Below, in pieces: positions 8,681 to 46,220 of a DNA stretch of 64,000 nucleotides. The notes beneath the pieces were generated by a model. The model worked only from the letters and a program-made list of their open reading frames with translations. It was not told the origin of the DNA and did no database searches. Positions within the stretch are counted from its first letter, which is position 1. Every line of letters begins with the position of its first letter. The stretch comes from Candidatus Moraniibacteriota bacterium. GTDB taxonomy: Bacteria > Patescibacteriota > Minisyncoccia > Moranbacterales > DUUL01. The stretch lies in contig JBFHFF010000004.1 in NCBI GenBank assembly GCA_041583775.1, positions 2,428-66,427 on the forward strand, given 5' to 3'. The translations under genes and the position numbers were made by a program.

Positions 8681-8706
8681 GTCATTCCCGCGAATGCAGG
8701 AATGAC
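8681..8706. repeat. palindromic element copy A (gtcattcc-cgcgaatgc-aggaatgac), intergenic, about 210 nt upstream of glmS
   Basis: 8-bp perfect arms. Shares CCCGCGAATGC...CAGGAATGACAAA with copy B and the GTCATTCC/GGAAT arms with copy C. Confidence 0.7.
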
Positions 8707-8917
8707 AAATAGGACATATAAATTCAAAATTAGAGACCAAGTCACTGTGTCATTTCTTGGAGAGGGTAAAAATAAAACATTATTATATTAAAAAATTTAT
8801 TCGAAATCCAAAATTAAAAATTCGAAATTACCTTGTTCTTAAAACTCGTTAATTCGTTAACTCGTTAATAAATAATAAATAATTCGCGTTACTAATATAA
8901 ACATTAAAACCAAAACT

Positions 8918-10738
8918 ATGTGTGGAATTGTAGGTTACATTGGCAAAAATAAAGCTCTACCGATTTTGTTGAATGGGCTAAAAAAACTAGAATATCGTGG
9001 TTATGATTCAGCCGGAGTTGCTGTTTTTGGAGAGAACCCGAAGGTTTTTAAATCACTCGGAAAAATAAAAGAACTTGAAAAAAAAATCGGAGGACAGAAA
9101 ATTGAAGGTACAGTTGGAATTGCTCACACTCGTTGGGCAACACATGGAAAGCCTTCAGAGGTGAATGCGCATCCACACACTGATTGCAAGGGGAAGATTC
9201 AAGTTGTACACAATGGAATCATTGAGAATTATGTTGAATTGAAAGAAAAGCTCAAAAAGAAAGGACATAAATTTCGTTCGCAAACTGACAGCGAAGTAAT
9301 CCCTCATTTGATTGAGGATTTATACAAGGGAGATTTGACTGAAACATTCAAAGAAGTTTTGCAAATCATTAAAGGAGCCTATGGAATTGTGGTTTTTTCA
9401 AAAGATGAGCCCGATAAACTTTTAGTAGCACGACATGGAAGTCCACTTGTGATTGGAATTGGGAGAAGTGAAACAGTCATTGCTTCTGATGTCTGCGCAA
9501 TTTTGCAATACACCAAAAAAGTTATCTATCTTGAAGATGGGGAAATGGCAGAAATTGGGCGTGATGATTTCAGAGTCTTTGATGCGAGTTTGAATTTGAT
9601 AAAAAAGAACATTGAAAATGTGGAATGGGAAATTGAAGAATCTTCTAAGAAGGGCTTTGAACACTATATGTTGAAAGAAATCTTTGAACAGCCAAAATCT
9701 TTACAAGATTCCTTTGGGGGAAGAATTTCTTTAGATAATGGAACTGCAAGATTAGGAGGATTGACCGAAGTTGCTGATAGAATGCGTGGAATTGAGAGAA
9801 TAATAATTGTGGCTTGTGGAACAGCTTGGCATGCTGGGCTTGTCGGTGAATATATGTTGGAGGAATATGCTGGAATTCCAGTTGAAGTCGAGTGGGCGAG
9901 TGAATTTCGCTATCGCAATCCAATTTTGGATGACAAAACCACAGTGATTGCAATCAGCCAATCTGGAGAAACAGCCGACACTCTCGCAGGGATTCGAGAA
10001 GCAAAAAATAAAGGCGCTTTGGTTCTGGGAATTGTGAATTCGGTTGGCTCGACAATTGCCAGAGAAACAGATGCCGGGATATATAATCATATTGGGCCAG
10101 AAATTTCAGTTGCATCGACAAAAGCTTTTACTTCTCAAGTTGCTATCTTAGCTCTTATAACTGTTTTTCTTGGACGACAACGGCGTATGTCTCTTGTAAT
10201 GGGAAAAAGGATCTTGGAAGAACTTTCACTATTGCCAGAGAAGATTGAGGAATTTCTGAAGGATAATGACATCGAAAGAATTGCGAAGAAATATCACAAA
10301 GCTAAAAACTTTGCATTTTTAGGGAGAAAATATTGTCAGCCACTTGCGTTTGAAGGCGCTTTGAAGTTGAAAGAAATTTCCTATATTCACGCAGAAGGAT
10401 TTGCGTCTGGTGAAATGAAACACGGATCAATTGCCCTAATTGATAAAGATTTCCCTTCCTTTTTTATCGCTCCAAAAGACAGTGTTTATGATAAAAATGT
10501 GAGTAATATAGAAGAAATTAAATCTCGAGGAGGAAGTATAATTGCTATTACCACAAAGGGCAATAAACTACTTGAAAAAACAATAGATGATGTTATTTAT
10601 ATCCCTAAAACATTGGAAATGTTGACACCAATTTTAGCGACAATACCATTGCAACTTTTTGCATATTATGTAGCAAGAATGAAGGGTTTAGATGTTGATA
10701 AGCCAAGAAATCTTGCCAAGAGTGTCACAGTAGAGTAG
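8918..10738 (+). CDS. glmS: glutamine--fructose-6-phosphate aminotransferase (GlmS)
   Basis: N-terminal MCGIVGY (Ntn Cys1), glutaminase domain, two SIS domains (SQSGETADTL, AEGFASGEMKHG), C-terminal KPRNLAKSVTVE. 606 aa. Confidence 0.92.
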   Translation: MCGIVGYIGKNKALPILLNGLKKLEYRGYDSAGVAVFGENPKVFKSLGKIKELEKKIGGQKIEGTVGIAHTRWATHGKPSEVNAHPHTDCKGKIQVVHNGIIENYVELKEKLKKKGHKFRSQTDSEVIPHLIEDLYKGDLTETFKEVLQIIKGAYGIVVFSKDEPDKLLVARHGSPLVIGIGRSETVIASDVCAILQYTKKVIYLEDGEMAEIGRDDFRVFDASLNLIKKNIENVEWEIEESSKKGFEHYMLKEIFEQPKSLQDSFGGRISLDNGTARLGGLTEVADRMRGIERIIIVACGTAWHAGLVGEYMLEEYAGIPVEVEWASEFRYRNPILDDKTTVIAISQSGETADTLAGIREAKNKGALVLGIVNSVGSTIARETDAGIYNHIGPEISVASTKAFTSQVAILALITVFLGRQRRMSLVMGKRILEELSLLPEKIEEFLKDNDIERIAKKYHKAKNFAFLGRKYCQPLAFEGALKLKEISYIHAEGFASGEMKHGSIALIDKDFPSFFIAPKDSVYDKNVSNIEEIKSRGGSIIAITTKGNKLLEKTIDDVIYIPKTLEMLTPILATIPLQLFAYYVARMKGLDVDKPRNLAKSVTVE

Positions 10739-10874
10739 CGATTTGAGTCTATTGAAAAAAAGAAGCGGTAATGTTAATATACAGTACCGTTCTTTTTATT
10801 AATAAAAGTGATGTAGAAATCTTCAAGGAAAACACTCCTTGAACAGAAGAAAAACGCTGGGAGGCGGATAAAAA

Positions 10875-11867
10875 ATGGTAGATATGAGTTTTTTGCCTGA
10901 AGAAGTTAGGGCCACAGAAGTAATTGGAAAACTTGAAGATGCTGGTTTCAAGCATATTCATACAGGAAAGACAACAGAAGTTTTTGCTCATCCTCTTGAG
11001 CTAGATTTGCTTGTTTTGTATTCGACAGACAGGTGTGTCGTTGATGGCATTGTTCTGGGAGAGTTTCTTCAGGGGAGAGGGCTTTTCAATACGGCCTTGA
11101 ATATTTATTGGCTGAAAAGGATCTTCCATGATTGGAAGAATCATTTTGTTGCTTCTGGTTCTGCGATTAGAAGAATTTTTCCTAGTTTTCCAAGCGACGA
11201 TGAAATGCTGGGAAGATGCTTGGTTGTTAGAAGAGTGGAGATGCCCAGAATTAGGGTAGTCGTTCACGGTAACTTTGTTGGAAATTCCTTTGACGCATAC
11301 AAAGATGGTTTTTGGCAAAGACTTGGATATAATCTCCCGAGTAATTTAAAGGAGGGTGCTAAGTTAAGCAGGAATATTTTTGTTCCATTAATTAAATCTT
11401 CAGAGGGGGTTTATAAAGAAGCTTCTTTTGAGGCGATGGTTATTTCTTTAGGTGGTCTTCGCACCATTGCTATGCAAATAAAAAAACTTAGCCTTGGTAT
11501 TTTCAAAAGAGCAAATGATATCACTCGAACCAGAAATGTTTTGATCGCCAATGCAAAATTCGAGTTTGGCGTTTGGTATAACGAAGAGGGGGATTATTGG
11601 GAGTTGTTTTTGACTGGTCAAGTTCTTACTCCAAGAACAGCACTGTTTTTAAGATATAACCCCAAAAAAGAAATTCCCCTAGAGGTTTGCGGAGAGCAGG
11701 CTCTGATTGATTGGGGAGGCCAAGTCAAGCTTAAAGCTGATCCGTCACATTGTCCTCCACGAAAATTTCTTGAGCAAAAAAGCGATTGGTATAGGATTCT
11801 TCTGGAAAGACTTTCTGGTGAGGAAGCAGAAAAATTTTTCCGTTTTGAAATGGGAATAGGGAAATAA
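10875..11867 (+). CDS. divergent SAICAR-synthetase (PurC)-like protein
   Basis: Aligns by eye to the canonical PurC at 38730: DRCVVDGIVLGEFLQGRGLFNTALNIYWL vs [29 protein letters not shown], and LIANAKFEFGVWYNEEGDYWELFLTGQVLTPRTALF vs [31 protein letters not shown]. It is far more diverged than an orthologue would be. Confidence 0.55.
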   Translation: MVDMSFLPEEVRATEVIGKLEDAGFKHIHTGKTTEVFAHPLELDLLVLYSTDRCVVDGIVLGEFLQGRGLFNTALNIYWLKRIFHDWKNHFVASGSAIRRIFPSFPSDDEMLGRCLVVRRVEMPRIRVVVHGNFVGNSFDAYKDGFWQRLGYNLPSNLKEGAKLSRNIFVPLIKSSEGVYKEASFEAMVISLGGLRTIAMQIKKLSLGIFKRANDITRTRNVLIANAKFEFGVWYNEEGDYWELFLTGQVLTPRTALFLRYNPKKEIPLEVCGEQALIDWGGQVKLKADPSHCPPRKFLEQKSDWYRILLERLSGEEAEKFFRFEMGIGK

Positions 11868-11880
11868 TTTTCCGAAAAAG

Positions 11881-11917
11881 TTGCCGCAATCCATTGTGAC
11901 CGTGGCAACTTTTTTAT
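11881..11917 (+). terminator. terminator hairpin after the PurC-like gene
   Basis: agttgccgcaatccattgtgaccgtggcaactttttt. Confidence 0.5.
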
Positions 11918-11918
11918 A

Positions 11919-11960
11919 AAAAAAGACCTTTATTACAAGATTTTGTGACAAAGGTCTTCG
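11919..11960 (-). terminator. terminator hairpin for the - strand gene 11999..13102
   Basis: aagacctttattacaagattttgtgacaaaggtctt: 9-bp stem. The T-run lies on the - strand. Confidence 0.5.
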
Positions 11961-11998
11961 TTGTTAATTTTTTAAGAAAAAAAGAAAATTGCCAGTTT

Positions 11999-14635: not shown

Positions 14636-14646
14636 AAAAATCACCA

Positions 14647-23455: not shown

Positions 23456-24022
23456 ATGAATAATAAAAGATTATATAAATTAACTAATATCGCAGAAATC
23501 TTTTCGGGATATTCCTTTAGGGGGGCTGTGCGTGAAGACAAAAATAGCCAAGTTTTTTTGATTCAAGCTAAGGACACAAGGAATTATTTGTCTGTAACGG
23601 AGGAAGATTTGAAGAAAATTACTGAAGAAAATTGTGGGGATAGATTTATAAAAAATGGCGATGTGGTGATAAGTGCGCGTGGATTTTTTTCAGCCACTGT
23701 TATTAATTCAAAAGAAAAAATAATCGGATCTTCCTCAGTTTATATTATAAAACCAGAGCAAAAAAAAATATTGTCTAAATACCTAGCAATTTATTTGAAT
23801 TCAAGAGTGGGACAAGCAGAAATAAAAAAATATGAAATTGGCTCAAGTATAAAAACAATTTTGATCGGTGATTTAAGAAATATTCAAATTGAAATTCCGA
23901 ATTTGAAAAAACAGCAAAAGATTGTTGAGTTATATGAAAATATTCAGAGGCAAAATGAACTCTTAGAAAAGAAAAAAGAAATTAATAAAAATATAATGGA
24001 AGCAATATTTATAAATAAATAA
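23456..24022 (+). CDS. hsdS: Type I R-M specificity subunit, half-size (single target-recognition domain)
   Basis: 188 aa. C-terminal conserved HsdS central/terminal motif IEIPNLKKQQKIVELYENIQ (cf. IPLPPLEEQKRIV). Confidence 0.6.
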   Translation: MNNKRLYKLTNIAEIFSGYSFRGAVREDKNSQVFLIQAKDTRNYLSVTEEDLKKITEENCGDRFIKNGDVVISARGFFSATVINSKEKIIGSSSVYIIKPEQKKILSKYLAIYLNSRVGQAEIKKYEIGSSIKTILIGDLRNIQIEIPNLKKQQKIVELYENIQRQNELLEKKKEINKNIMEAIFINK

Positions 24023-24026
24023 AATT

Positions 24027-25541
24027 ATGATACCAAAAAAATATACACAAGAAGATTTGAATAATACTCTTTGGGCAGCAGCTGATTCATCTAGAAGTAG
24101 TGTGGATGGGGGAATTTACAAGGATTATGCTTTGGCAATGTTATTTTTTAAATACATCAGTGATAAATCAAAAAAACAATTAGAAGAATACACAAAAAGA
24201 TTTGGCAAAGATAAGGAAAGAATTGCACAAAAAATGAAAAATGACCGTTTCTATTTGCCACCAAAAGCTACTTTTGATTATATTTATAGCGCTATCGAGA
24301 GCGATAAGATTGGTGAAGAAATCAATATAGCCTTACATGCTATTGAAGATAATAACAAGGAAAAATTAGGTGGTGTTTTTAGTGCGATTGATTTTAATTC
24401 TGAAGCTACACTGGGAAAGTTAGAACAACGCAACAAAATGATTCGTCATTTGATTAATGATTTTGCCAAAATAGATTTTAGTGATGTCAAAGAGGATGTG
24501 ATTGGCGATGCCTATATGTATATGATTGAACGCTTTGGAGCGGATGCTGGAAAGAAAGCAGGGGAATTTTTTACTAGACGATCAGTTGCATCTTTGGTGG
24601 CAAGATTAGCTAATCCAAAACCGGGAGACAGAATTTGCGATCCAGCGATGGGAAGCGCAGGTCTTTTGTTATTGGCTGGAGAAGAAGTGGAAAAAAAGGG
24701 TTCAAAAAATTATGCTCTATATGGGCAAGAGTCAACAGGAAGCACTTATCAATTGGCTAGGATGAATGTCTATTTGCATGGCAAAGATCATGCTCGCTTG
24801 GAATGGGGTGACACTTTGAATCAACCAGCACTAACAGAAAATGATAAATTGATGAAGTTCGATGTCTGTGTTGCTAATCCACCCTTTTCTCTGAAGAAGT
24901 GGGGGGCAGAAAGTGCTGAAAGCGATAAATACAAAAGATTTTGGCGTGGAACTCCTCCAAAAGACAAAGGAGATTTTGCTTTTATTACTCATATGGTGGA
25001 GACAGCTAAACCTAAAAAAGGTAGGGTATCGGTTATCGTCCCTCACGGTGTGCTTTTTCGTGGAGGAGCAGAAGGAAAAATTCGTGAGCAATTCATTCAA
25101 GAAAATATAATTGACGCGGTGATCGGACTGCCAGCCAATCTTTTTTCCACTACGGGTATTCCAGTGGCAATTTTAGTAATTGATAGATCAAGAGAAGTTG
25201 GCGGAACAAATGAAAACAAAAAAGACATTCTTTTTATTGAAGCTTCCAAGGAATTCCGTTCCGGAAAAGCGCAAAATCATTTAGACGAGGTGCATATTGA
25301 AAAAATTCTAGATACATATGACAAAAGAAAAGATGTGAAAAAATTTGCACATGTGGCAGATTTTAAGGAGATTGAGGAGAATGATTTTAATCTCAATATC
25401 ACTCGTTATGTGGATACTTTTGTTGAGGAAGAGCCGATTGATATCAAAGCTAATTTGAAAGAGCTGGAGAAACTTAACCCGGAGATTGAGAAATTGGAGA
25501 AAGAAATGGGGAAATATTTAAGAGAGTTAAACATTAAGTAG
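24027..25541 (+). CDS. hsdM: Type I R-M N6-adenine DNA methyltransferase subunit
   Basis: HsdM N-terminal domain. SAM motif I DPAMGSAGLL. Catalytic NPPF (ANPPFSLKKW). Confidence 0.9.
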   Translation: MIPKKYTQEDLNNTLWAAADSSRSSVDGGIYKDYALAMLFFKYISDKSKKQLEEYTKRFGKDKERIAQKMKNDRFYLPPKATFDYIYSAIESDKIGEEINIALHAIEDNNKEKLGGVFSAIDFNSEATLGKLEQRNKMIRHLINDFAKIDFSDVKEDVIGDAYMYMIERFGADAGKKAGEFFTRRSVASLVARLANPKPGDRICDPAMGSAGLLLLAGEEVEKKGSKNYALYGQESTGSTYQLARMNVYLHGKDHARLEWGDTLNQPALTENDKLMKFDVCVANPPFSLKKWGAESAESDKYKRFWRGTPPKDKGDFAFITHMVETAKPKKGRVSVIVPHGVLFRGGAEGKIREQFIQENIIDAVIGLPANLFSTTGIPVAILVIDRSREVGGTNENKKDILFIEASKEFRSGKAQNHLDEVHIEKILDTYDKRKDVKKFAHVADFKEIEENDFNLNITRYVDTFVEEEPIDIKANLKELEKLNPEIEKLEKEMGKYLRELNIK

Positions 25542-25547
25542 AGATAT

Positions 25548-25790
25548 ATGAGAAATAAAACATTAAAAACAACAAAAGAGACTTCAACTGGTCTAAATAA
25601 AAAAAGTATTGATTTGAAAAATCTTTCTGAAAAGGAAAATAAAGAGCTTATTAAAAAAGCTGATGCTGGAAATCTTCCTGGATATCATACTGTTAAAGCT
25701 GATGGTAAGAAAAAATTCTTAAGATCAAATCCTGATCGAAAGAAGAGTAACAATCTTGATCCTAAAATATCAAAAAAGGGTAAAAAATAA
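25548..25790 (+). CDS. small Lys-rich hypothetical protein embedded in the R-M operon
   Basis: 80 aa, very basic, 6 nt after hsdM. Confidence 0.4.
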   Translation: MRNKTLKTTKETSTGLNKKSIDLKNLSEKENKELIKKADAGNLPGYHTVKADGKKKFLRSNPDRKKSNNLDPKISKKGKK

Positions 25791-25804
25791 ATTAAAGGAT
25801 AACT

Positions 25805-26794
25805 ATGGCAAAAGCCCGATATAAAAATTTAGTAGATAAATCTGTACAGGCAGCAGTTTCTGCTATTGAGATTTACAATAAGCCAGATTTTAAATATCGG
25901 GAAGAGACTTTTGCTATCCTTATGATTAATGCCTGGGAGTTGTTGTTTAAAGCAAAAATCCTTTTAGATAATGATGGTAGGTTAAAAAGTATATATATTC
26001 CAGATAGGACTGAGAATTCAAAAGGAGAAAAATTAAAACGTTTTTATCCTAAAAAAAATCGCTCAGGAAATCCTCTAACTCTTGATATATTCTCATCAAT
26101 AAAACTTCTTAAGATAGATAATACTCTAAGTAAGAATATAGGTTTAATGGTTGAAATTAGGGACAATGCTATTCATTTTGTGAATGATTCAAAAGAATTT
26201 GAGAAAATAGTTCTTGAGATAGGAACAGCGACACTAAGAAGTTTTGTAACTTTGGTAAATGAATGGTTTGATTGTGATTTGGCAAATTATAATTTTTATT
26301 TAATGCCTATATCATTTTTTCATACTTTTGAAATGGAGAGCTTTTCTGTTAACAAAAAGAGTAAACAAAAAGAAAATTTTTTTGCTTTTATTTCAAATGA
26401 ATTAAATGAAAACTCTGCTGATTTAAATAAAAAACATAACATCGCATTGAGACTAGAGACAAGATTTGAAAAATCTAAATCAGTTGATGCACTGGCAGTG
26501 AGATATTCAAAAGATTCGCCAATTGTAGTAAGGCAAGAAATGGAAAATCGTATTCATGAAGGATTAAAAAACAAAAGTTTGTTTTCTCATGAAGACTTCG
26601 TTTCAAAATTAAGAGAAAAGATTCCAAATTTTAAAATAGACAAAGATTTTAATAAGCAGAAAAATGAAATGAAGAAAGATTCAAAATATTGTCTGACAGC
26701 GTATTTAAATCCCTTGGAAAAAAGCGGAACAAAAAGGCACTACTGGACAACGGAAGCAATGAAAAAAATTAAAATTCTATATGACAAAAAATAA
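25805..26794 (+). CDS. hypothetical protein embedded between hsdM and hsdS (possibly DUF3644-like)
   Basis: N-terminus AIEIYNKPDFKYREETFAILMINAWELLFKAKIL resembles what I recall of DUF3644. Its stop overlaps the hsdS start by 14 nt. Family call is low-confidence memory. Confidence 0.45.
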   Translation: MAKARYKNLVDKSVQAAVSAIEIYNKPDFKYREETFAILMINAWELLFKAKILLDNDGRLKSIYIPDRTENSKGEKLKRFYPKKNRSGNPLTLDIFSSIKLLKIDNTLSKNIGLMVEIRDNAIHFVNDSKEFEKIVLEIGTATLRSFVTLVNEWFDCDLANYNFYLMPISFFHTFEMESFSVNKKSKQKENFFAFISNELNENSADLNKKHNIALRLETRFEKSKSVDALAVRYSKDSPIVVRQEMENRIHEGLKNKSLFSHEDFVSKLREKIPNFKIDKDFNKQKNEMKKDSKYCLTAYLNPLEKSGTKRHYWTTEAMKKIKILYDKK

Positions 26795-28034
26795 ATCACA
26801 AAAAAATATACCTGATGGGTGGCAAGAAATAAAGCTCGGAGAGATATCCAGTGTGTTTGATGGTACTCATCAAACACCAAATTATACAAAAAGTGGAATC
26901 CCATTTTACAGCGTAGAGCATTTGACAGCAAATGACTTTACGGATACGAAATATGTTTCAGAGGAAGTTTTTGAGCGAGAATCCAAGAGGGTTAAAATTG
27001 AGAAAGGTGACATTTTGATGACAAGAATAGGCGATGTAGGAACAGCTAGACATATAAATTGGGATGTGAAAGCATCTTTTTATGTATCACTTGCCTTAAT
27101 TAAATGCAAAAAAGATGTGAACGCAAAATTTTTAACTTTTTTTATAAACTCAGCATATTTTCAACGAGAAGTATGGGGCAAAACTATCCATGTTGCCTTT
27201 CCAAACAAGATAAACTTAGGAGATATAAGCAAATGCGTGTCCATTCTCCCTCCTCTCCCCGAACAAAAACGCATTGTTGCGTTGCTGGAGGTTTGGGATG
27301 AGGTGGTTGAGAAATTGGGGAGGAAAATTGAGGTTAAGAAAAATATCAAAAAAGGTTTGATGCAGGAGCTTTTGAGTGGTAAAAAAAGATTGAGTGGGTT
27401 TAAAGAAGGGTGGCGAGATATAAAAATTTCCAAATTAGGAAAAAATTATTCTGGTATTACTGGAAAAAATAAAGATGATTTTGGTTCAGGAAAACCTTTT
27501 ATTTCATATATGAACATTTATTCCAATTCTAAATTGGATACTGATTTTAAAAGTTTTGTTGATATAAAAAATGGTGAAAAACAAAATGCTGCTAAATACG
27601 GTGATTTATTTTTTACAACATCATCAGAAACTCCCCATGAAGTTGGAATTAGCTCAGTATTATTGGATAAAAATGTAGGAGAATTATATTTAAACAGTTT
27701 TTGTTTTGGTTTTAGGTTGAATAATTTTAAAATATTAATTCCGGAATTTTCTCAATTTTATTTCAGAGGACAATATTTCAGGAAGCAAATGACGAGAATT
27801 GCACAAGGTGCAAGTAGGTTCAATTTATCTAAAAAATACTTTTTGGAAACAAAAATAAATATTCCGAAAGATATTAAAGAACAAAAAGCAATTGCAGATA
27901 TCTTAGTGACGGCTGATTGGGAAATTGAGAAATTGGAAGAAAAATTAAGAATCATTAAGGATCAAAAAAAATATCTTCTAAACAATCTCATCACCGGCGC
28001 AATCCGCACGCCCGAGAACTTATTAATTAATTAA
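26781..28034 (+). CDS. hsdS: Type I R-M specificity subunit, full two-TRD form
   Basis: Central conserved LPPLPEQKRIVALLE and C-terminal IPKDIKEQKAIADIL...LITGAIRTPE repeats typical of HsdS. Confidence 0.85.
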   Translation: MTKNKSQKNIPDGWQEIKLGEISSVFDGTHQTPNYTKSGIPFYSVEHLTANDFTDTKYVSEEVFERESKRVKIEKGDILMTRIGDVGTARHINWDVKASFYVSLALIKCKKDVNAKFLTFFINSAYFQREVWGKTIHVAFPNKINLGDISKCVSILPPLPEQKRIVALLEVWDEVVEKLGRKIEVKKNIKKGLMQELLSGKKRLSGFKEGWRDIKISKLGKNYSGITGKNKDDFGSGKPFISYMNIYSNSKLDTDFKSFVDIKNGEKQNAAKYGDLFFTTSSETPHEVGISSVLLDKNVGELYLNSFCFGFRLNNFKILIPEFSQFYFRGQYFRKQMTRIAQGASRFNLSKKYFLETKINIPKDIKEQKAIADILVTADWEIEKLEEKLRIIKDQKKYLLNNLITGAIRTPENLLIN

Positions 28035-28043
28035 AGTAATCCA

Positions 28044-28271
28044 ATGGAAAATTACAGAGACTGGGATAATGATTCAGGAATTGAAGCTTATGAAATTGAA
28101 AACGATGCCATAATTATTCAATTTAAAAATGGAAGAAATAAATTTTATAAATATACAAATTTTTCTTGTGGCTCAGATAATATTGCTATAATGAAACAAC
28201 TTGCTTGTGAAGGAGAGGGACTTAACGAATTTATTGTTGAAAATAAAATTGAGTACGAATCTAAATGGTAA
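28044..28271 (+). CDS. KTSC-domain small protein
   Basis: IEAYEIENDAIIIQFKNGRNKFYKYTNFSCGSDNIAIMKQLACEGEGLNEFI fits the KTSC pattern (S.i..v.Y......L.v.F..G..Y.Y..v......l..A.S.G.y.n..I). Confidence 0.5.
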   Translation: MENYRDWDNDSGIEAYEIENDAIIIQFKNGRNKFYKYTNFSCGSDNIAIMKQLACEGEGLNEFIVENKIEYESKW

Positions 28272-28287
28272 TTTTTTGAATACTATT

Positions 28288-29136
28288 ATGAAAAAGAGAC
28301 CAACAGAAAACAATATCCGCCCAACAATTTTTGAACAAAAAGAAGTGCGTCGAGTGTGGCACAATGAACAATGGTTTTTTGTTATAAATGATATTGTAAG
28401 TGCGCTCACGCAAACATCAAATGTTTCTGATTATATTAAAAAAATGAGATTGCGAGATATTGAGCTTGGAAAAGGGTGGGGACAGATTGTCACCCCCCTT
28501 TCTGTGAAGACCAAGGGTGGCTTGCAGAAATTAAATTGTGGTGATTTGAAGGGAATTTTTCGTATTATTCAATCAATTCCATCTCCCAAGGCTGAACCGT
28601 TTAAACAATGGTTGGCGAGAGTGGGACAAGAAAGAATTGAGGAGATTCAAGATCCTGAAAGGGCAATTGTGCGAGCCAAAAAAATCTATGAACAAAAGGG
28701 TTACAAAGATGACTGGATTGCTAAAAGAATGCGAGGGATTAATGTGCGGAATACTTTGACGGACGAATGGAAAGAAAGAGGTGCAAGAGGTGGCTTTGAT
28801 TTTGCTATTTTGACTAACGAAATTTATCGAGGTGCATTTGAAATGGATGCCAAGCAGATTAAGGAATTTAAATCATTAGACAATCCAGATAACCCAAGAG
28901 ATCATATGTCAGAACTTGAGCTTATTTTAACAATGCTTGGAGAGGCGACGACCACAGAAATTACTACTACTAAAAATTCAAAAGGTTTATCGGAATTATC
29001 TCAAGATGCAAAAGAAGGTGGACAAGTGGCGGGTAGAACCAGGAAAGATATTGAGAAGCAAACAGGCAAAAAAATAATTTTAGAAAATAATTTTAAAAAC
29101 CAGAAACTTTTAAGAAGTAAATTTAAGAAAAAATAA
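28288..29136 (+). CDS. Bro-N / DinD-like (DNA-damage-inducible protein D family) protein
   Basis: N-terminus IRPTIFEQKEVRRVWHNEQWFFVINDIVSAL is Bro-N-like. C-terminal FDFAILTNEIYRGAFEMDAKQIKEFK...HMSELELILTMLGEATTTEI aligns with E. coli DinD DFAIFQNHGYQGLYGGL...ILDHMGSTELAANLFRATQTEE. Start chosen at MKKRPTEN. Confidence 0.55.
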   Translation: MKKRPTENNIRPTIFEQKEVRRVWHNEQWFFVINDIVSALTQTSNVSDYIKKMRLRDIELGKGWGQIVTPLSVKTKGGLQKLNCGDLKGIFRIIQSIPSPKAEPFKQWLARVGQERIEEIQDPERAIVRAKKIYEQKGYKDDWIAKRMRGINVRNTLTDEWKERGARGGFDFAILTNEIYRGAFEMDAKQIKEFKSLDNPDNPRDHMSELELILTMLGEATTTEITTTKNSKGLSELSQDAKEGGQVAGRTRKDIEKQTGKKIILENNFKNQKLLRSKFKKK

Positions 29137-29137
29137 T

Positions 29138-32100
29138 ATGAGCATATTAAACATAGATTTCGACGAAGCCAGACAATCACAACTACCCTTTGTGGAATTG
29201 CTTTTAAATTTGGGCTACAAATACATATCTCGAGAGGAGCTGCTGCAAGAACGAAAAGGAGACACAGGAAAATTTATCTTGCGAAAAACTGCCAGTGAGG
29301 TCTTGATGAAAATCAATAGCTATGAGTATGCTGGAAAGGAATATAAATTTAGCGAAGAAAAAGTTTTTGAAGCTATTGATGAATTGGAAAACATTCCCTA
29401 TGAAGGTTTAGTAGATACTTCAGCCAAAATTTATCAAACTATCATGCCAACTAGCGGAGGGAAAACCATTCAAGTTTTTCATGATGGCAAAAAAATGAGT
29501 CAAAATTTTCGTTTTATTGATTTTGAAAATGTAGAAAATAATGTTTTTCAAGTGGCGGTGGAATTCGAGGCTACAGGGAAAGAAAACATTCGTCCAGACA
29601 TCGTGGTTTTTATAAACGGCATTCCCTTGGCCATAATCGAAAATAAAAAAGCTAGCGTTGATGTCCAAGAAGCTTTGAGACAAATGATCCGTAATCAAAG
29701 AGCAGAATATTGTCCAAGACTCTTCATATATCCGCAATTATTAGTTGCTACAAACGGCAAAGATTTGCGTTATGGCACCACAGCTACCCCGACAGAATTC
29801 TATGCTAAGTGGCGAGAGAAAGATGGAGAAAAAGAATTAGAAGAAAAAGTAGAAAATCTAATTTCTACAAAAATTGAAAAGGACCTTTATAAAAAAGTTT
29901 GTCTAGACCTCAATGGAGCAACTAAAAATCATTTACAAAAAATCAATCGTGATGTAACTGAGCAAGATCGGGGTGTGGTGGCAATTTTTGATAAACATAG
30001 AATTTTAGATTTAGCAAAGAACTTTATTCTTTATGATGCAGGTATAAAAAAAGTAATGCGCTACCAGCAATATTTTGCTATTAAGAGAATTTTAGAGAGA
30101 ATAGAACATAGAGTTCCTGGCAAAGATGGAGACAAAAGAGAAGGAGGTATTTTATGGCATACTCAAGGAAGTGGAAAGTCATTAACAATGGTAATGTTTA
30201 TCAAGGCCTTGATTGAAAGTCCCGAAATTATAAATCCTCGAGTATTGATTGTGACTGATAGAAAAGATTTGGATAGGCAAATTAAAGGAACTTTTGAAAA
30301 TGCAGGATTGAAAAAAGAAGTGGTGCAGGCTAAAAGTGGAGAGGATCTTTTGAATCTTATTGAGAAAAAAGATTTAAGCGTGGTGACAACTCTTATTCAG
30401 AAATTTCAATCGGCCAGTAGAAAGAATGTTGGTTTTGAAGATTTGGATGATAATATTTTTGTATTGATTGATGAAGCCCATCGGTCACAGGGAGGAGAAG
30501 CAAACATTGAAATGAATCGTATCATTCCCAATGCTTGCTATATTGCTTTCACTGGCACGCCTCTTCTTAAGAAAGAAAAGTCGAAAAATAAATTTGGTAG
30601 TTTTATCGATAAATATACTATTGATGATGCTCTGACTGATGAGATTATTTTGCCCTTGATCTACGAAGGACGCTATGTGGATCTTCATCAAGACAAAAAA
30701 GAAGTTGATAGACAATGGGACAGAGTGACTGATGGTTTGCCAGATGCTCATAAATATCAATTGCAACAAGATATTGAAAAGAAAATTATTGCCAATAACC
30801 CAAGTCGTATTGCAGAGATTTCTTATGACATTGAAAAACATTACATAACTAGATTCAAAGATACAGGACTAAAAGCACAAATTGTAGCACCATCAAAATA
30901 TTCAGCTGTACTTTTTGAAAAATATTTCAAAGAGAGCGGAAAAGTTCAAACTGCCTTGGTAATTTCTGATGAAAATGGTCTTATCGACATGAAAGATAGC
31001 CATAAAAGAGACGTGGATGAATATTTGAAAGATATAAAAGAGAAATATCAGAGCTTAAAGAAATATGAAGAAAGTGTTATTGATAGTTTTAAATACAACG
31101 AGGACGGTGTGGAAATTTTGATCGTGGTAGACAAATTATTAACCGGTTTTGATGCTCCACGGAACACTGTTTTGTATTTAGCCAAGGAACTCAGAGATCA
31201 CAATTTATTACAAGCCATTGCTAGAGTAAATCGGCTATTTGATAATCGAAACTTGCCAAAAACCGCTGGGTATATTATTGATTATTCAGAGAATGCTCAG
31301 AATATTAGAACCGCAATGCAACTTTTTGGAAATTATGATGGGGATGATGTGGCTGGTGCGCTTATTGATGTGAGGGAAAAAATTAATGAGTTGGATGATC
31401 ACTATGGAAAACTGCACGATATATTTAGAGGAGTCAAGGATGATGATGAAGCATATTTGAAATATTTGGAAGATGAGCAGATAAGAAAAGAATTTTATGA
31501 CGGGATAAGAAAATTTTTAACTACCTTTAATGAATGTATGAATTTACGGGATTTTGTTCATGAGTTTGAAAATATTGATATTTATCGTAAAGAGTTGAAA
31601 AAATTCATGGAGCTGCGTAAAATCGCAAGCGTTCGTTACGCGGAGAGAGTTGATTTTGCAAAATACAAACAAGCGCTGACAAAAATCATGGATGAAAATA
31701 TCCGAGCAGAAGAGGTAGAGTTTTTGACGAGAGAAATTACTATTACTGATAAGGATGCTTTTGAAAAAGTTATTGAAGAGCTAGGGTCTGATAAATCAAA
31801 AGCTGATGCAATCACCGCTCAAACGAAAAAGATTATTTCAGAAAATGCAGTGAAAGATCCAGAATTTTATAATAGATTCTCTAAGCAAATCAATGATTTA
31901 ATCGAAGAGATGCGGTTAGGAAAAATTGCTGATATTGAAGCTTTGAAAGAAGCGCGTAAAATTAATGAGGAGGTTAATGATAAAAAGGACGAAACTGTTC
32001 CATTGGAGTTAAGCGACAAAGCTGGTGCAGATATAATTTTTCGAAATATTAAAAAGGAATTCGATGATTTGAATGTGACAGAGGATCAATATGTAGAAAT

Positions 32101-32317
32101 CATTTCCAATTTACACGGAGTGATTTGTGATAATGCTGTTGTGGACTGGTGGAAAAATAGTGAACATAAAAGAAGAATGAAAGAAGTTATCGATGATTAT
32201 CTTTATGATGAAGTTAAAATAAAGATGGACATTGAGCTTACTAATGAAAAGATAGAGGAAATGATTGATATCGTTATGGATTTAGTTCAAAATAATCACG
32301 AGATCTTTAGCTTATGA
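29138..32317 (+). CDS. hsdR: Type I restriction enzyme R subunit (nuclease plus SF2 helicase)
   Basis: N-terminal PD-(D/E)xK PDIVVFINGIPLAIIENKK. Helicase motif I GSGKS. Motif II VLIDEAHRSQ. 1059 aa. Confidence 0.9.
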   Translation: MSILNIDFDEARQSQLPFVELLLNLGYKYISREELLQERKGDTGKFILRKTASEVLMKINSYEYAGKEYKFSEEKVFEAIDELENIPYEGLVDTSAKIYQTIMPTSGGKTIQVFHDGKKMSQNFRFIDFENVENNVFQVAVEFEATGKENIRPDIVVFINGIPLAIIENKKASVDVQEALRQMIRNQRAEYCPRLFIYPQLLVATNGKDLRYGTTATPTEFYAKWREKDGEKELEEKVENLISTKIEKDLYKKVCLDLNGATKNHLQKINRDVTEQDRGVVAIFDKHRILDLAKNFILYDAGIKKVMRYQQYFAIKRILERIEHRVPGKDGDKREGGILWHTQGSGKSLTMVMFIKALIESPEIINPRVLIVTDRKDLDRQIKGTFENAGLKKEVVQAKSGEDLLNLIEKKDLSVVTTLIQKFQSASRKNVGFEDLDDNIFVLIDEAHRSQGGEANIEMNRIIPNACYIAFTGTPLLKKEKSKNKFGSFIDKYTIDDALTDEIILPLIYEGRYVDLHQDKKEVDRQWDRVTDGLPDAHKYQLQQDIEKKIIANNPSRIAEISYDIEKHYITRFKDTGLKAQIVAPSKYSAVLFEKYFKESGKVQTALVISDENGLIDMKDSHKRDVDEYLKDIKEKYQSLKKYEESVIDSFKYNEDGVEILIVVDKLLTGFDAPRNTVLYLAKELRDHNLLQAIARVNRLFDNRNLPKTAGYIIDYSENAQNIRTAMQLFGNYDGDDVAGALIDVREKINELDDHYGKLHDIFRGVKDDDEAYLKYLEDEQIRKEFYDGIRKFLTTFNECMNLRDFVHEFENIDIYRKELKKFMELRKIASVRYAERVDFAKYKQALTKIMDENIRAEEVEFLTREITITDKDAFEKVIEELGSDKSKADAITAQTKKIISENAVKDPEFYNRFSKQINDLIEEMRLGKIADIEALKEARKINEEVNDKKDETVPLELSDKAGADIIFRNIKKEFDDLNVTEDQYVEIISNLHGVICDNAVVDWWKNSEHKRRMKEVIDDYLYDEVKIKMDIELTNEKIEEMIDIVMDLVQNNHEIFSL

Positions 32318-33018
32318 AAAAAATAAAATTTATTTATGGAAAATATAGTTATGAATATATTTTAATTCTAGAGAAAAGAAAGTCTTTAAGTTTGGCAATA
32401 TATCCAGATATGAAAATTGTTTTAAAATCTCCCGACAACCTTAATGCAGATGCTATTGAAAAATTTCTTAAAAAAAAGTGGTTATGGATGGAAAAGCAAC
32501 TACAATTTTTTTCTCAATTTCAAGGGAAAAAAGTTAAAAAAAGTTATGTTTCAGGTGAGAGTTTTTTGTATTTAGGTCGTCAATATAAATTGATTGTGGA
32601 GAAATCTGATCAGGATTCTATGTTACTGCAAAAAGGAAGGTTAGTACTCAGTACAACAGGAGAATTAAGAGATGGTAACAAAAATAAAAAATTAATTAAG
32701 AAGTGGTATAATGATAGAATAGAAGTTATATTTAAAGAAAGATTTGAGGAAGTAAGAAGAAATTTTGACTATGATTTTGAGTTTAAGTTGACTATCAGAA
32801 AAATGAATAAACGATGGGGGAGTTATGCTAGAAATAACACTATATCATTAAATCCACTATTAATTAATGCTTCTAAAAAATGTATTGATTATGTAATAAC
32901 TCACGAATTATGCCATGCAGAAAATAAGAAGCATGACAATAAATTTTTTCAATTATTATCTCGTAAATTTCCAAATTGGCAGAAAGTAAAGGAGGAGCTA
33001 GAGTTGAGGTTTACTTAA
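32314..33018 (+). CDS. YgjP-like DUF45 (SprT/WLM-related) metallopeptidase-fold protein
   Basis: HExxH (ITHELCHAENKKH). ATGA overlap with the hsdR stop. Confidence 0.7.
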   Translation: MKKIKFIYGKYSYEYILILEKRKSLSLAIYPDMKIVLKSPDNLNADAIEKFLKKKWLWMEKQLQFFSQFQGKKVKKSYVSGESFLYLGRQYKLIVEKSDQDSMLLQKGRLVLSTTGELRDGNKNKKLIKKWYNDRIEVIFKERFEEVRRNFDYDFEFKLTIRKMNKRWGSYARNNTISLNPLLINASKKCIDYVITHELCHAENKKHDNKFFQLLSRKFPNWQKVKEELELRFT

Positions 33019-33139
33019 ATTTATGTAATTGATTACTTACATAAATTTAAAAAAATGACAGTACGCAAAAGTGACTCGAAGATTATTATTGAGGACTGGA
33101 AGAAATAGAAAAAGAAATAATGCGACATAATGCTAGCCT

Positions 33140-33186
33140 GGATTCCTGCCGATGTTCACCCCGCGAATGCCGGGGCAGGAATGACA
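33140..33186. repeat. palindromic element copy B (nested hairpin), 27 nt upstream of the DUF2779 gene
   Basis: ggattcctgcc gatgttca ccccgcgaatgccgggg caggaatgac: outer arms attcctgcc/ggcaggaat, inner ccccg/cgggg. Confidence 0.7.
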
Positions 33187-38480: not shown

Positions 38481-38729
38481 ATTATATCCCATTTTAAATG
38501 CAATCTTATGGGAATTTCTTGTTTTTTGGAAAGCATCTACAGAAAAAACAAAACCATCAAACAAATTGCAGAAGATTTGGGCTTGCAAAGGGGATGGTCT
38601 TAGAATTTAAAGGGGCTCAAAAAAGTCCTTTTTACTTTACAAAAGCACCATCGCGTGCTTTAATAGTCTAATCGCAAATGTGCGAGAAGAAGAAGTTCTT
38701 ATTATAAATTGGAAACTAGAGGAGGTTTT

Positions 38730-39662
38730 ATGGCACAGCAAGTTATCACAGAAACCAATTTTTCAAAATTGGTTTCTCTAAACAAAGGCAAGGTCCGTGA
38801 TATGTACGGAATTCCTGGTCACGATGACAAATTGCTGATAGTCGCATCGGACCGTATATCGGCATATGATGTAGTTATGTCAGAGGGTATTCCAGGAAAA
38901 GGAGAAAATTTAACACAAATGTCCCTTTTCTGGTTTGGTCTGTTGGGGGAGATCGTTGATAATCACCTAATTACAGCTGATGTCAATGAATATCCCGAGG
39001 CATGCCAACCGTATGCAGATGTTTTGCGTGGCCGGTCAATGCTGGTCAAAAAGGCCAAGCCATTGCCGATTGAATGCATCGTTCGGGGGTATATTTCCGG
39101 GTCTTTCTGGAAAGCTTATCAAAAAGCCCCAGTCAGCAACTGTCGTGAACACAGGTTCAAGAATGTGTTAGGGCACCATGGAATCCCTGCTGACATGCAA
39201 GAATCAGAAAAATTTCACAGGCCGCTGTTCACGCCATCAACCAAGGCAGAAATTGGTGGTCATGACGAAAACATCTCGCTTGAACAGACAAGTGAGATTA
39301 TTGGCGCAGAAAGAACACAAGAAATTGCCGAGATTTGCCTCAATCTATATTCAACGGCCGCTGATTATGCTCGCTCAAGGGGCATTATCATCGCTGATAC
39401 CAAATTCGAATTGGGTGAGGTCGATGGTCGATTGATTTTGATCGATGAGGTTCTGACGCCAGATTCATCTCGTTTCTGGCCCTTTACCGAATATAGGTTG
39501 GGCAAAAGTCAACCAAGTTTCGACAAGCAACCTTTAAGAGATTATCTGGCGAATTTGGAGGGCTGGGATAAAAATCCCCCACCGCCACCCTTGCCAAAGG
39601 AAATTATAATGGCAACCAGGGAAAACTACGAGGAAGCCAGGATGCGTTTAATTGTGTCTTGA
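38730..39662 (+). CDS. purC: phosphoribosylaminoimidazole-succinocarboxamide synthase (SAICAR synthetase)
   Basis: DRISAYDVVM, ADTKFELG, LIDEVLTPDSSRFW. RBS gaggagg 5 nt upstream of ATG 38730. Confidence 0.85.
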   Translation: MAQQVITETNFSKLVSLNKGKVRDMYGIPGHDDKLLIVASDRISAYDVVMSEGIPGKGENLTQMSLFWFGLLGEIVDNHLITADVNEYPEACQPYADVLRGRSMLVKKAKPLPIECIVRGYISGSFWKAYQKAPVSNCREHRFKNVLGHHGIPADMQESEKFHRPLFTPSTKAEIGGHDENISLEQTSEIIGAERTQEIAEICLNLYSTAADYARSRGIIIADTKFELGEVDGRLILIDEVLTPDSSRFWPFTEYRLGKSQPSFDKQPLRDYLANLEGWDKNPPPPPLPKEIIMATRENYEEARMRLIVS

Positions 39663-40064: not shown

Positions 40065-40108
40065 GTTAAAACAAAAAATAAACACCCGAATATTTATTAG
40101 TTAAAATA

Positions 40109-41862: not shown

Positions 41863-41914
41863 ATAAAAAATGTTTTAGAGTCACTTTTATGTTTGATTTT
41901 AGCTAAATAAAACT

Positions 41915-42577: not shown

Positions 42578-42596
42578 CACAATAAATAAAACAAAA

Positions 42597-43253: not shown

Positions 43254-43262
43254 AAAAAGAAG

Positions 43263-43625
43263 ATGCAAACAAAAATAAAAAAGAAAATCTATCTTGCCCT
43301 CACAATAACGCTTATTTTTCTTTTGGGGTTCATTCTGTATGCGATGATTGAAGCTGCTTATATTAAAGAAGTTGTTTCGATAGGGGGTTCAACGGTCACT
43401 GTTTGTTATTTTGGATTTTTATGGAAAGAACTTCCATTTTGGTTGAGATTATTTTGGATTTTTGTTGCAATTGTTGATGGTTATTTTCTTGGTCAATATT
43501 GGTGGCGAATTGTTTATGTGGAAAAACGACATTGGAGTTTTCATAAAAATAAAGTCACCACAAAAAAGAAGAGGGTTGTTAAATCAAAACAAAAGAAGCA
43601 CAAAGATGCTAAGTTGGTGAAATAG
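43263..43625 (+). CDS. small membrane protein, paralog of 50000..50293
   Basis: WWRIVYVEKRHWSFHK vs WWHTIYVEKKVWRFGF. Confidence 0.45.
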   Translation: MQTKIKKKIYLALTITLIFLLGFILYAMIEAAYIKEVVSIGGSTVTVCYFGFLWKELPFWLRLFWIFVAIVDGYFLGQYWWRIVYVEKRHWSFHKNKVTTKKKRVVKSKQKKHKDAKLVK

Positions 43626-43988
43626 TTTAATGATAAAAAGACCTATATAAAAAACTACCAAGAAATGGTAGTTTTTTATATTTGACATTCAATAAAGGTG
43701 ATTTAGAATAAAAATAGATAAGATGCCTACCGGGTAGGTAGGATTGCCTAAATAAGCTTAATGAGCAAAAAATGACGGTGTAGAAAAAACAACCATTGCA
43801 CTGAAGAAGGCATCGACTCTTTCGCTCAGGGTTATAAAGATGGTTGAGGACAAAACATTTAAAAAATTGTTTTGTCAATGCAACGAAAGACACAAATGAA
43901 AAAGTGAAAAGAAGAATGATTGAAGAATTTTTACGAATTGAAAAGCTAATAAAAAAGTCTTCTATATAAGGTTAGCTAAACCAAAAAG

Positions 43989-46169
43989 ATGACGAGAAAA
44001 ACTGTTACAATTAAAATTTCAGGGATGACTTGTGCTAGTTGTGCAATCAATAATGAAAAAGCTCTTTTGGAAACAACAGGTATTTTTAGGGCGAATGTTA
44101 ACTTTGCAAACAAAAAAGCAACCGTAGAATTCGATAGTGATATTCTGAGTGAAAGTGATTTACATAAAGTTATTGTTGAAAACGGCTATAAAGTTGAGGA
44201 AAAGGAGGAGGTGCACAATTACGAGCATCACCACGAAACGGGAGATGCAGAAAAAAGCAAAAGAGATTTTATTAGTGCTTTAGTTATTAGTATTCCATTA
44301 CTTTTGGAGATGTTCCTGAAATTACGCACGGGTATTTTGATATTTGGAATTGATTTGGTAATGTGGCTACACCTTTTATTGTCAGCGGTTGTAGTTTTCC
44401 ATTTTGGTGCTCGTTTTCATCATATGGCTTTTTTGCAGGCAAAAAAATTTCAGACCAATATGGATACTTTGATTTCAATGGGAACTTTGGTGGCATTTTT
44501 CTATAGTGTTTGGGCTGTTTTTAACGGAAAGCCAGTGTATTTTGAGACCTCTGCCATTATTATAGTCTTAATTATTCTGGGAAAATATTTTGAAGAAAAA
44601 AGTTTGGGAAGGGCGAGTGAAGCAATGCAGAAATTGATGGAGTTGAGTGTGAAAAAAGCTCATATTTTTGTGGATGGAAAAGAGAAAGAGGTGGAAATTG
44701 AAAGAGTCGCCAAGGGCGATGTGCTTGTGGTGCGTCCTGGTGAAAAAATTCCCTTGGACGGAGTTGTGATTGAAGGAAGCTCAAGTGTGAATGAATCTAT
44801 GTTAACAGGAGAGTCATTGCCAGTAGAAAAAAACATTGGAATAAAAGTCTTTGGGGCAACTTTGAATGAAGATGGCGTTTTGAAAATCAAAGTGACAGAA
44901 ATTGGTGAAGGAACAGTTCTCTCTCAAATTATCAAAACAGTAGCAGAGGCACAGGGTTCAAAGGCGGAAATTCAAAAACTTGCAGATAAAGTTTCAGGGA
45001 TTTTTGTGCCTTTGGTGTTGGCAATTTTTGTATTAACATTTTTGGGATGGTTACTAATATCACAAAATTTTTCTTTGGCAATTATTAATGCTGTTGCGGT
45101 TTTGGTGATTGCTTGTCCTTGTGCACTTGGACTTGCAACCCCAACGGCAATTATGGTAGGAACAGACAAAGGCGCAAAACGAGGAATTCTATTCAAAAAT
45201 TCTGAAAGTTTTGAACGAGCAAAGGACATCTCAATGGTGGTGTTTGATAAGACCGGAACTTTAACTAAAGGCACTCCAAAGATGGAGAGAATTTTAATTG
45301 AACCAACAGTTGGTTTTGACGAAGAAAATGTTTTGAAAATAGCAGCTTCGATTGCGGCCAATTCAAAACATCCCCTTTCAAGTGCTGTAAGTGCTTTTGC
45401 CAAAGAAAAGAAAATTGATTTGCAAAAGTTGAAAAAGATTAAAGAAGAAAAAGGAAAGGGTATTGTTGGTTATTGCTCCACACACCAAAAGAAAGTGATG
45501 TTGGGAAATTTCAAGTTGCTCAAGGAAAATGGACTTGCCACAAAATGGGCCGAGGAAATTTTGTCTGATGATAGAATCCAAGAAGGCACAAGACTATTTG
45601 TTGCCTATGACGATTTGGTAATTGGTGTGCTTATCGTTGCCGATGAAGTTCGAATAGAATCTAAAGAGGTTGTTTCGAAATTACTTGCTATGGGACTTAA
45701 AGTTGTGATGATATCGGGTGACAATATTAAGACCGCAAAAGCTGTTGCAAATCGTTTGGGAATTGAAAATGTGTTGGGCGATGTCTTGCCAAAAAGCAAA
45801 GCGGATGAAGTTGCAAGATTTCAAGCAAATGGCGAGAAGGTTGTCTTTGTGGGTGATGGGATTAATGACGCTCCAAGTTTAATCCAAGCAGATCTTGGAA
45901 TCGCAATGGGGGGTGCATCCGACATCGCAAAAGAGGCCGGGCAGATTGTATTGATACAGAGCAACTTGAACCTCGTTGTTGAGGCAATTTTGATTTCAAA
46001 AACAACTTTCAAGACCATCAAACAAAATCTTTTCTGGGCTTTTGCTTATAATGTTATTGCTATTCCACTTGCGATGGCAGGATTCTTGAGTCCAATGATT
46101 GCAGCAGCTGCAATGTCATTTAGTTCGGTTTCAGTGGTGACGAACAGTCTCCGGATTTATCGAAAATAG
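43989..46169 (+). CDS. copA: Cu+-exporting P1B-type ATPase
   Basis: [30 protein letters not shown]. Confidence 0.9.
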
Positions 46170-46193
46170 AAAAAGATTCTTAATTTTCTTTGT

Positions 46194-46220
46194 TGTCATT
46201 CCTGTGAAAACAGGAATCCA
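46194..46220. repeat. palindromic element copy C (gtcattcctg-tgaaaa-caggaatccag), 25 nt after the copA stop
   Basis: Shares the GTCATTCC / CAGGAAT arms with copies A and B. Confidence 0.65.

Follow-up and report, generated by a model that had tools for sequence, protein, structure and literature searches.

Three hairpin-forming repeats that lie between genes in a stretch of 64,000 nucleotides from Candidatus Moraniibacteriota bacterium (assembly GCA_041583775.1, contig JBFHFF010000004.1, positions 2,428 to 66,427; this whole stretch is called the window below) are probably relics, in a Patescibacteria genome, of the hairpin repeat family known as NTS or the Ssn-related motif (SRM), of dRS3 type. 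The family itself is already known: it was described in 2025, and under the name dRS3 two decades before that. NTS has the sequence CGTCATTCCCGCGMAVGCGGGAATCYRG and contains the older dRS3 repeat ATTCCC-N8-GGGAAT (Nat Commun 2025, PMC11893778). It is bound and cut, solely as single-stranded DNA (ssDNA), by SsnA, a 94-residue single-domain GIY-YIG protein; the folded hairpin is what the Neisseria enzyme binds, its nick falls immediately 5' of the stem, and of the flanking bases the three 5' of the palindrome (GTC) matter for cleavage while the C directly 3' of it matters most for binding (PMC11893778). Homologues of ssn occur in many phyla, flanked by SRMs (PMC11893778). What is new here is modest, namely a host among the Patescibacteria, a stem variant with T-A that the published search motif does not cover, and a decay series in relatives; a full-text literature search found no paper linking GIY-YIG hairpin repeats to Patescibacteria.

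The three copies and the oriented hairpin

The initial annotation of this DNA had pointed to a palindromic repeat in three intergenic, hairpin-forming copies, and all of this stands. The copies are where it placed them, with the exact bounds given below; the gene layout of the window puts each of them between genes, and folding with RNA and with DNA parameters returns a hairpin for each.

Copy A, 8681-8706, no strand (symmetric): GTCATTCCCGCGAATGCAGGAATGAC, in the 504-nt spacer from a TrmB-family regulator gene (7664-8413) to glmS (8918-10738)
Copy B, 33138-33185, minus strand: minus-strand reading GTCATTCCTGCC-[25 nt]-GGCAGGAATCCAG, between a YgjP-like gene at the end of a type I restriction-modification (R-M) cluster and a DUF2779 gene
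Copy C, 46195-46221, plus strand: GTCATTCCTGTGAAAACAGGAATCCAG, 26 nt past the copA stop codon and 154 nt ahead of an rlmN-like gene
Probable doublet-spacer remnant after copy C, 46222-46250, plus strand: weak alignment to the spacer of a doublet in the relative L328 (see below)

The core that A and B were said to have in common is real as the 11-mer CCCGCGAATGC, CGCGAATGC is found at these two places of the window only, and the octamer GTCATTCC occurs four times, always inside copies A-C. A loose hairpin pattern matched three loci in the 64 kb, where 1000 simulations of the window with a first-order Markov model gave 0.014 on average and never more than 1, an over-representation relative to simulated sequence that is evident within the window itself. 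With a covariance model built from 72 independent hairpins of other organisms, and with filters off, copy C scored 47.7 bits (E 3e-11), copy A 29.7 bits on the plus strand (E 4e-6) and 17.2 bits on the minus strand, and copy B, its long loop treated as an insertion, 16 bits (E 0.03); beyond these the scan of the window gave nothing credible, the remaining matches being noise within genes.

The annotation had also proposed a symmetric consensus, GTCATTCC...GGAATGAC, which fits copy A alone and fails as the consensus of the family, whose true form is GTCATTCC...GGAATCCAG or, more fully, the asymmetric GTCATTCC(Y)G(Y)-GNRN-(R)C(R)GGAATCCAG. Its building block, 27 nt long, is an oriented hairpin with GTC at its 5' end, an 8-bp stem ATTCCYGY/RCRGGAAT, a tetraloop starting with G, and CCAG at its 3' end. 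Read on the minus strand, copy B has ends identical to those of copy C, and since these two copies share the same two ends the family is oriented; the flanks that matter in Neisseria, GTC 5' and C 3' of the palindrome, are present in C on the plus and in B on the minus strand. The GGAATGAC end is GTCATTCC read from the opposite strand and stands at both ends in copy A only, the symmetry of which looks secondary.

Copy C has the layout GTC-ATTCCTGT-GAAA-ACAGGAAT-CCAG, with an 8-bp stem, a GAAA loop and both oriented flanks kept. Aligned with the NTS 28-mer it shows five mismatches, four of which make up two compensatory stem pairs, and it represents the canonical variant in which T replaces C and the changes in the stem compensate each other. 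The same changes recur in a sample of 132 hairpins collected with a search pattern that left both positions of stem pair 13/22 free: this pair is C-G in 121, T-A in nine and mismatched in two (Fisher 4e-12), pair 15/20 shows the same covariation behaviour, 99.3% of the cells in the hairpin alignment are paired, and the loop starts with G, in the forward orientation, in 126 of the 132. Judged by this covariation, the stem is kept by compensatory change, that is, the structure is under constraint.

The other two copies depart from this form in different ways. Copy B reads GTC-ATTCCTGCC...GGCAGGAAT-CCAG on the minus strand and CTGGATTCCTGCC-GATGTTCACCCCGCGAATGCCGGG-GCAGGAATGAC on the plus strand; its loop is enlarged to 25 nt and contains a nested GC-rich mini-hairpin (CCCCGCGAATGCCGGGG in the plus-strand reading), in agreement with the extra nested stem noted earlier, which is a 25-nt loop insert within the minus-strand hairpin. 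On the plus strand the nested core has the forward reading. Long-loop variants with a nested CCCCGC..GCGGGG core are present in the window (33150-33175) and in the unrelated contigs L003, L023, L032, L041 and L086, and they arise independently. Copy A is a symmetric chimera, GTCATTCCCGC-GAAT-GCAGGAATGAC, that joins a forward-type 5' half and loop to a reverse-type 3' end; because the C after its palindrome is missing on both strands and its stem has one C/A mismatch, Ssn should act on it poorly, provided that the rules found in Neisseria hold here. A spurious open reading frame (ORF) of 58 codons (8615-8791) crosses copy A and translates the hairpin as ...AVIPANAGMT....

Spread of the hairpin and its pairing with ssn genes

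A degenerate hairpin pattern matched at least 120 stretches in IMG/VR contigs whose GC content spans 32-72%; of the matches listed, nearly all are the 25-mer GTCATTCCCGCG-NN-GGCGGGAATCC followed by A. The T-variant was matched in at least 120 stretches of JGI metagenomes, in contigs of 28-68% GC, and the exact 25-mer core of copy C lies in at least nine unrelated metagenome contigs, beside unrelated genes.

The gene that accompanies the hairpin was sought in 240 unrelated hairpin-centred loci, 1.73 Mb in all, by tblastn with a cleaned set of Ssn-like ORFs as seeds. Thirteen of the 240 loci hold an ssn gene, each at most 130 nt from a hairpin; at least ten of these genes have a hairpin 10-61 nt upstream in gene orientation, and at least eight have a further one, in opposite orientation, 5-119 nt downstream, the usual layout being hairpin-ssn-inverted hairpin. 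In 80 control loci of unrelated bacterial DNA (1.28 Mb) there were two hairpins and not one ssn gene. In other contigs, hairpins of the T-variant type seen in the window stand immediately beside intact ssn genes, and when the 150 ORFs closest to hairpins of this type were put through an unbiased Pfam scan GIY-YIG came out on top with six members, the other listed families having at most two. A sequence search of the PDB with an Ssn-like protein gave no match. In two unrelated metagenome contigs (L311, 4480-5360; L326, 2900-3760) a second conserved ORF of about 125 residues occupies a hairpin-bounded cassette of its own, directly upstream of the hairpin-ssn-hairpin unit.

Adjacent hairpins in the unrelated loci follow one another forward-then-reverse in 40 of 69 pairs, and their spacings fall into two main classes, 13-71 nt for gene-less doublets and 267-385 nt for hairpin-ssn-hairpin units. 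This is the pattern, in orientation and in spacing, of a gene-carrying element accompanied by an internally deleted derivative resembling a miniature inverted-repeat transposable element (MITE).

Doublets, losses and a truncated nuclease gene in relatives

Syntenic loci of relatives, at 75-92% protein identity, were compared with the window, among them L328 (GCA_041596615.1; RlmN 88% and GlmS 92% identical). Homologues of GlmS, RlmN and the DUF2779 protein assign the window to Patescibacteria, the closest named match to GlmS being from Candidatus Falkowbacteria at 73%. An identical contig is present in Logan. Hairpins have been gained or lost among these relatives at five intergenic sites. Two further hairpins, one behind an SNase gene of L328 and one ahead of a gene for SAICAR synthetase in L335, have no counterpart in the window.

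At the site of copy A, the relative L202 (92%) has a perfect orthologue, GTCATTCCTGCGAAGGCAGGAATGAC, with the same flanks and a loop GAAG where the window has GAAT. L203 (86%) has three hairpins in its TrmB-glmS spacer, including the inverted doublet GTCATCCTCGCGAAGGCGGGGATCCAG-48 nt-CTGGATTCCTGCCTTCGCAGGAATGAC, and in L204-207 (85%) this spacer is 27 nt long and free of hairpins. In a doublet the octamer GCAGGAAT forms a direct repeat, being present in the 3' arms of both hairpins, and a deletion between the two repeats would give exactly the L202 sequence. Because L203 has a doublet at the same site, copy A may well be an inverted doublet that collapsed by deletion between its GCAGGAAT arms. 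Upstream of glmS there is also an AT-rich palindrome of about 60 nt at 8559-8618 (GCAACTAATTATTATTAC ... AATAATAATTCGTTG), unique within the window and kept at the same place in L202 and in L203, where it occurs twice; it may serve the TrmB-like regulator encoded next to it as an operator, or else belong to the inserted spacer.

After copA, L328 carries a full doublet at the orthologous site, in which its version of copy C has two mutations in the arms and stands 48 nt away from an inverted partner that is intact. The 29 nt that follow copy C in the window (46222-46250) match the L328 spacer with 20 of 25 identities, a likeness equalled in 1% of shuffles; this is weak evidence and, the site being orthologous, not independent of L328, and it makes the segment a probable remnant of a doublet spacer whose right-hand inverted hairpin has decayed beyond recognition. 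The L203 spacer has no significant similarity to the sequence after copy C. The copA-rlmN spacer is an insertion hot spot: its cargo in the window (46170-46375) is no more than the hairpin, and in the relatives it is a 200-residue ORF without assigned function in L328 (8670-10000), a methylase/endonuclease/Vsr set of HpaII type in L330 (6829-10000) and an M23 peptidase in L331 (8510-10000). No hairpin follows copA in L330, with its HpaII-type R-M system, or in L331, with its peptidase gene.

Copy B is absent upstream of the DUF2779 gene in L333-L336, and the spacer preceding it showed no significant likeness in the spacer comparison. The type I R-M cluster beside it (23456-33018) comprises a partial hsdS, hsdM, DUF3644, hsdS, a Bro-N protein, hsdR and the YgjP-like metallopeptidase, and the neighbourhood of the DUF2779 gene has a different R-M or defence set in each of L333, L335 and L336.

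The doublets of L203 and L328, which fold into long hairpins, lie at non-orthologous loci in different genomes, and their 48-nt spacers are identical at 35 of 48 positions without gaps (0 of 5000 shuffles); being alike at non-orthologous places, they mark the doublet of about 108 nt as a repeated unit in itself. Direct repeats were not seen at the flanks of copy A, the L203 doublet or the L328 doublet, where the inverted ends are present. A hairpin sub-variant, GTCATCCTCGCGAAGGCGGGGATCC, at two different loci in JGI relatives (L203, 9762-9794; L335, 17565-17597) suggests a second sub-family in the lineage.

A trace of the nuclease gene itself is found in L328, where an ORF fragment, KALFFYIMTNKMYSTLYVGFTNDLLRRASEHKDRKIKR, begins 35-39 nt after the hairpin that follows the SNase gene and in the same orientation. 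In tblastn it aligns with residues 1-38 of Ssn-like proteins (E 2e-7), and it reaches 30.3 bits with the Pfam GIY-YIG profile (gathering threshold 22.6) over profile positions 3-37 of 78, where it ends. Read from its sequence, the fragment is the truncated upstream half of a hairpin-ssn-hairpin unit. An ssn gene has therefore been present in the lineage and, in this copy at least, has decayed; the fragment is the only match that motif and tblastn searches for ssn gave in the relatives' loci. The orthologous SNase spacer of the window is only 9 nt long, and the alignment of filled and empty forms of this junction was too divergent to set the insertion boundaries. In this lineage the family has the look of an old one in decay: copies are few, point mutations break stems, and the ssn gene of a relative is truncated.

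These forms suggest a history in which an element of the kind seen elsewhere, with two inverted hairpins bracketing a gene of about 290 nt for an Ssn-like GIY-YIG nuclease of about 95 residues, would have given rise to gene-less inverted doublets (hairpin, spacer of 13-71 nt, inverted hairpin), derivatives akin to MITEs or to the REPINs discussed below, that dispersed into intergenic DNA. Copy C would then be an intact left-hand hairpin with a decayed partner, copy B a right-hand hairpin with a nested loop insert, and copy A a doublet collapsed by deletion between its directly repeated GCAGGAAT arms.

Competing explanations and significance

A number of results weigh against assigning the copies to the NTS/SRM family. 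To our knowledge, the Ssn enzymes assayed so far include none assayed on a T-variant hairpin, and we know of no organism for which the mode of multiplication of such hairpins has been established. The window and the 1083 nt to its left contain no ssn gene, intact or broken, by motif search or tblastn; hairpins are sparse, at three per 64 kb, and all but one of them depart from the regular form. Copy A has GTC and yet, on both strands, a G in place of the C 3' of the palindrome. The dRS3 definition ATTCCC-N8-GGGAAT fits no copy, C reading ATTCCT-N8-AGGAAT, A reading ATTCCC-N8-AGGAAT and B having its loop of 25 nt, and a search allowing at most one mismatch to the NTS 28-mer would pass over C, with its five, and A, with seven to nine. 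The published SRM expression, HGTCWYN(0-2)YYVSBRHN(0-5)WNVSBRGN(0-2)RNCYNB, has no match in the window on either strand. Lastly, a preprint takes the identical Neisseria 21-mer, ATTCCCGCGCAGGCGGGAATC, as a repetitive extragenic palindrome (REP) that forms REPINs with a Group 2 RAYT (bioRxiv 10.1101/2021.07.10.451892), an assignment that counts against ours. The failure of the SRM expression says more about the expression than about the copies, since it matches 27 of 44 C-variants and misses all 28 T-variants, some of which flank intact ssn genes.

Set beside the NTS/dRS3-SsnA system, the window has the same oriented hairpin (GTC, ATTCC-G-, a G-first tetraloop, -C-GGAAT, CCAG), likewise intergenic and dispersed, and the same variant brackets a gene for a single-domain GIY-YIG protein of about 95 residues in unrelated contigs. 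It differs in having T-A in place of C-G in the stem, with the five mismatches to the 28-mer; in its host, a Patescibacteria bacterium of 35% GC and not Neisseria; and in copy number, with three copies in 64 kb and no ssn in the window as against hundreds of copies per Neisseria genome. The SRMs of Wolbachia, Rhizorhabdus, Rickettsia and others are similarly hairpin repeats of 20-50 nt near ssn homologues across phyla (PMC11893778), and differ in that the copies of the window lie outside the motif as written. We infer that the copies of the window were produced, or are recognised, by an Ssn enzyme, and the hairpin system may be active in this genome today.

The options raised in the initial annotation, a REP- or MITE-like element, an RNA stability element or the binding site of a regulator, fare unequally. 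The first is right in kind, given a dispersed non-coding hairpin family with inverted doublets of about 108 nt and with gain and loss among relatives, and very probably wrong if a classical RAYT-type REP is meant. With the REP/REPIN-RAYT systems (REP and BIME of E. coli, and the REPINs of Pseudomonas and Neisseria; bioRxiv 10.1101/2021.07.10.451892) the repeats have in common that they are extragenic palindromes in inverted doublets and clusters, with long vertical inheritance and decay once the cognate enzyme is lost; full doublets are present in the relatives L203 and L328, and in the window there are relics only. Were they classical REP/REPIN elements mobilised by a RAYT (Y1, IS200-like) encoded elsewhere in the genome, with Ssn a bystander, the inverted doublets with short spacers in L203, L328 and many unrelated contigs would be the REPIN hallmark, in line with the preprint. 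RAYT-type REPs typically have GTAG at their 5' side, whereas the flank here is GTCA, and the partner gene is one for a GIY-YIG nuclease, not a Y1 transposase: GIY-YIG is the sole recurrent family among the 150 nearest-neighbour ORFs, the gene tables of the window and of about 200 kb of the relatives' loci list no Y1 transposase, and no RAYT or IS110-type gene was found in the window. SsnA, moreover, has been shown experimentally to bind and cut this hairpin (PMC11893778), and we consider mobilisation by a RAYT very unlikely. The likeness to MITEs such as the Correia elements of Neisseria and the palindromic elements of Rickettsia lies in the non-coding length of about 100 nt, the inverted ends, the different loci in related genomes and a plausible derivation from a gene-carrying parent by internal deletion; the repeats differ from them in that no target-site duplication was seen, the inverted ends are complete hairpins, and no transposase is known.

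A cis-regulatory signal of the host, either a 3' stabiliser or terminator (copy C) or an operator, for instance for the TrmB-like protein near copy A, is very improbable as the primary role. All copies are intergenic, C stands 26 nt past a stop codon on the sense strand with an 8-bp stem and a GAAA loop, and A lies between the gene of a TrmB-family regulator and glmS, all of which would suit such a signal. Against this, a terminator scan of the three spacers found no T-tract and no terminator-like site at any copy, and promoter-like sites were at chance level; Rfam at gathering thresholds gave no match in the whole window; strand and position relative to genes differ between copies; relatives lack the hairpin at the same junctions (L204-207 between TrmB and glmS, L330 and L331 after copA); and the identical 25-mer stands beside unrelated genes in unrelated organisms of 28-68% GC, a spread that neither a local operator nor a local terminator would account for. 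The stability element and the regulator's site are alike unsupported as the primary role. There is a similarly small chance that the hairpins are recombination or attachment sites at island borders, used by a site-specific recombinase or a phage integrase. The dRS3 repeat has been reported as the target of a phage recombinase in filamentous prophages of Neisseria (PMC11893778), copy B abuts the type I R-M cluster, the cargo of the copA-rlmN spacer varies among four relatives and includes an HpaII-type R-M system, and the TrmB-glmS spacer ranges from 27 to 718 nt; it is suggestive of a role at island borders that B and C abut variable, defence-rich segments. The islands are nonetheless not bracketed by pairs of hairpins, the R-M insertion of L330 has no adjoining hairpin, no recombinase gene lies beside any copy in the window, and intergenic spacers are variable anyway. 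A scan of the window for tRNA and tmRNA genes found none, and hence no tRNA-linked integration site.

Other features of the window stand apart from the hairpins. The cumulative GC skew peaks at about 49800-51200, where gene orientation flips from plus to minus, as at a replication terminus, and an imperfect inverted repeat of 36 nt (50280-50356) lies within this region. Two paralogues of SAICAR synthetase are encoded (10875-11867 and 38709-39662), and for the second the closest matches among reference genomes come from Desulfobulbaceae (68%) and not from Patescibacteria, which suggests that it was acquired horizontally. About 2 kb at 52802-54841 contain short ORFs only, with no tRNA and no Rfam match, and include several perfect or near-perfect inverted repeats (53320-53383, 54705-54745).

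As relics of the NTS/SRM family, the hairpins explain an otherwise orphan-looking repeat and carry a warning to annotators, in that such a hairpin yields spurious ORFs like that at 8615-8791. Through them the Ssn/NTS system gains a lineage of Patescibacteria and a stem variant with T-A that escapes the published motif, so that surveys based on this motif will under-count the family in AT-rich genomes. Understanding of the mechanism of the system is unchanged by these findings. The relatives do provide a small natural history of the element, with the doublet whole or collapsed, the hairpin on its own, and the nuclease gene cut short, which fits the notion of repeats that depend on the nuclease and decay without it. 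Beyond this, we entertain as a tentative and rather doubtful possibility that hairpin-ssn-inverted hairpin in Patescibacteria is a selfish element, akin to an insertion sequence, that crosses phyla, spawns doublets of about 100 nt, creates nick-driven hot spots of deletion and insertion, and maybe acts on incoming strands. If true, this would explain the occurrence of the same 25-27-nt hairpin in genomes of 28-72% GC; at its nick sites in ssDNA the surrounding spacers would become prone to deletions and to the insertion of defence cargo, R-M systems among it; and, as in Neisseria, it could act on incoming single strands in naturally competent, DNA-scavenging bacteria of the candidate phyla radiation.

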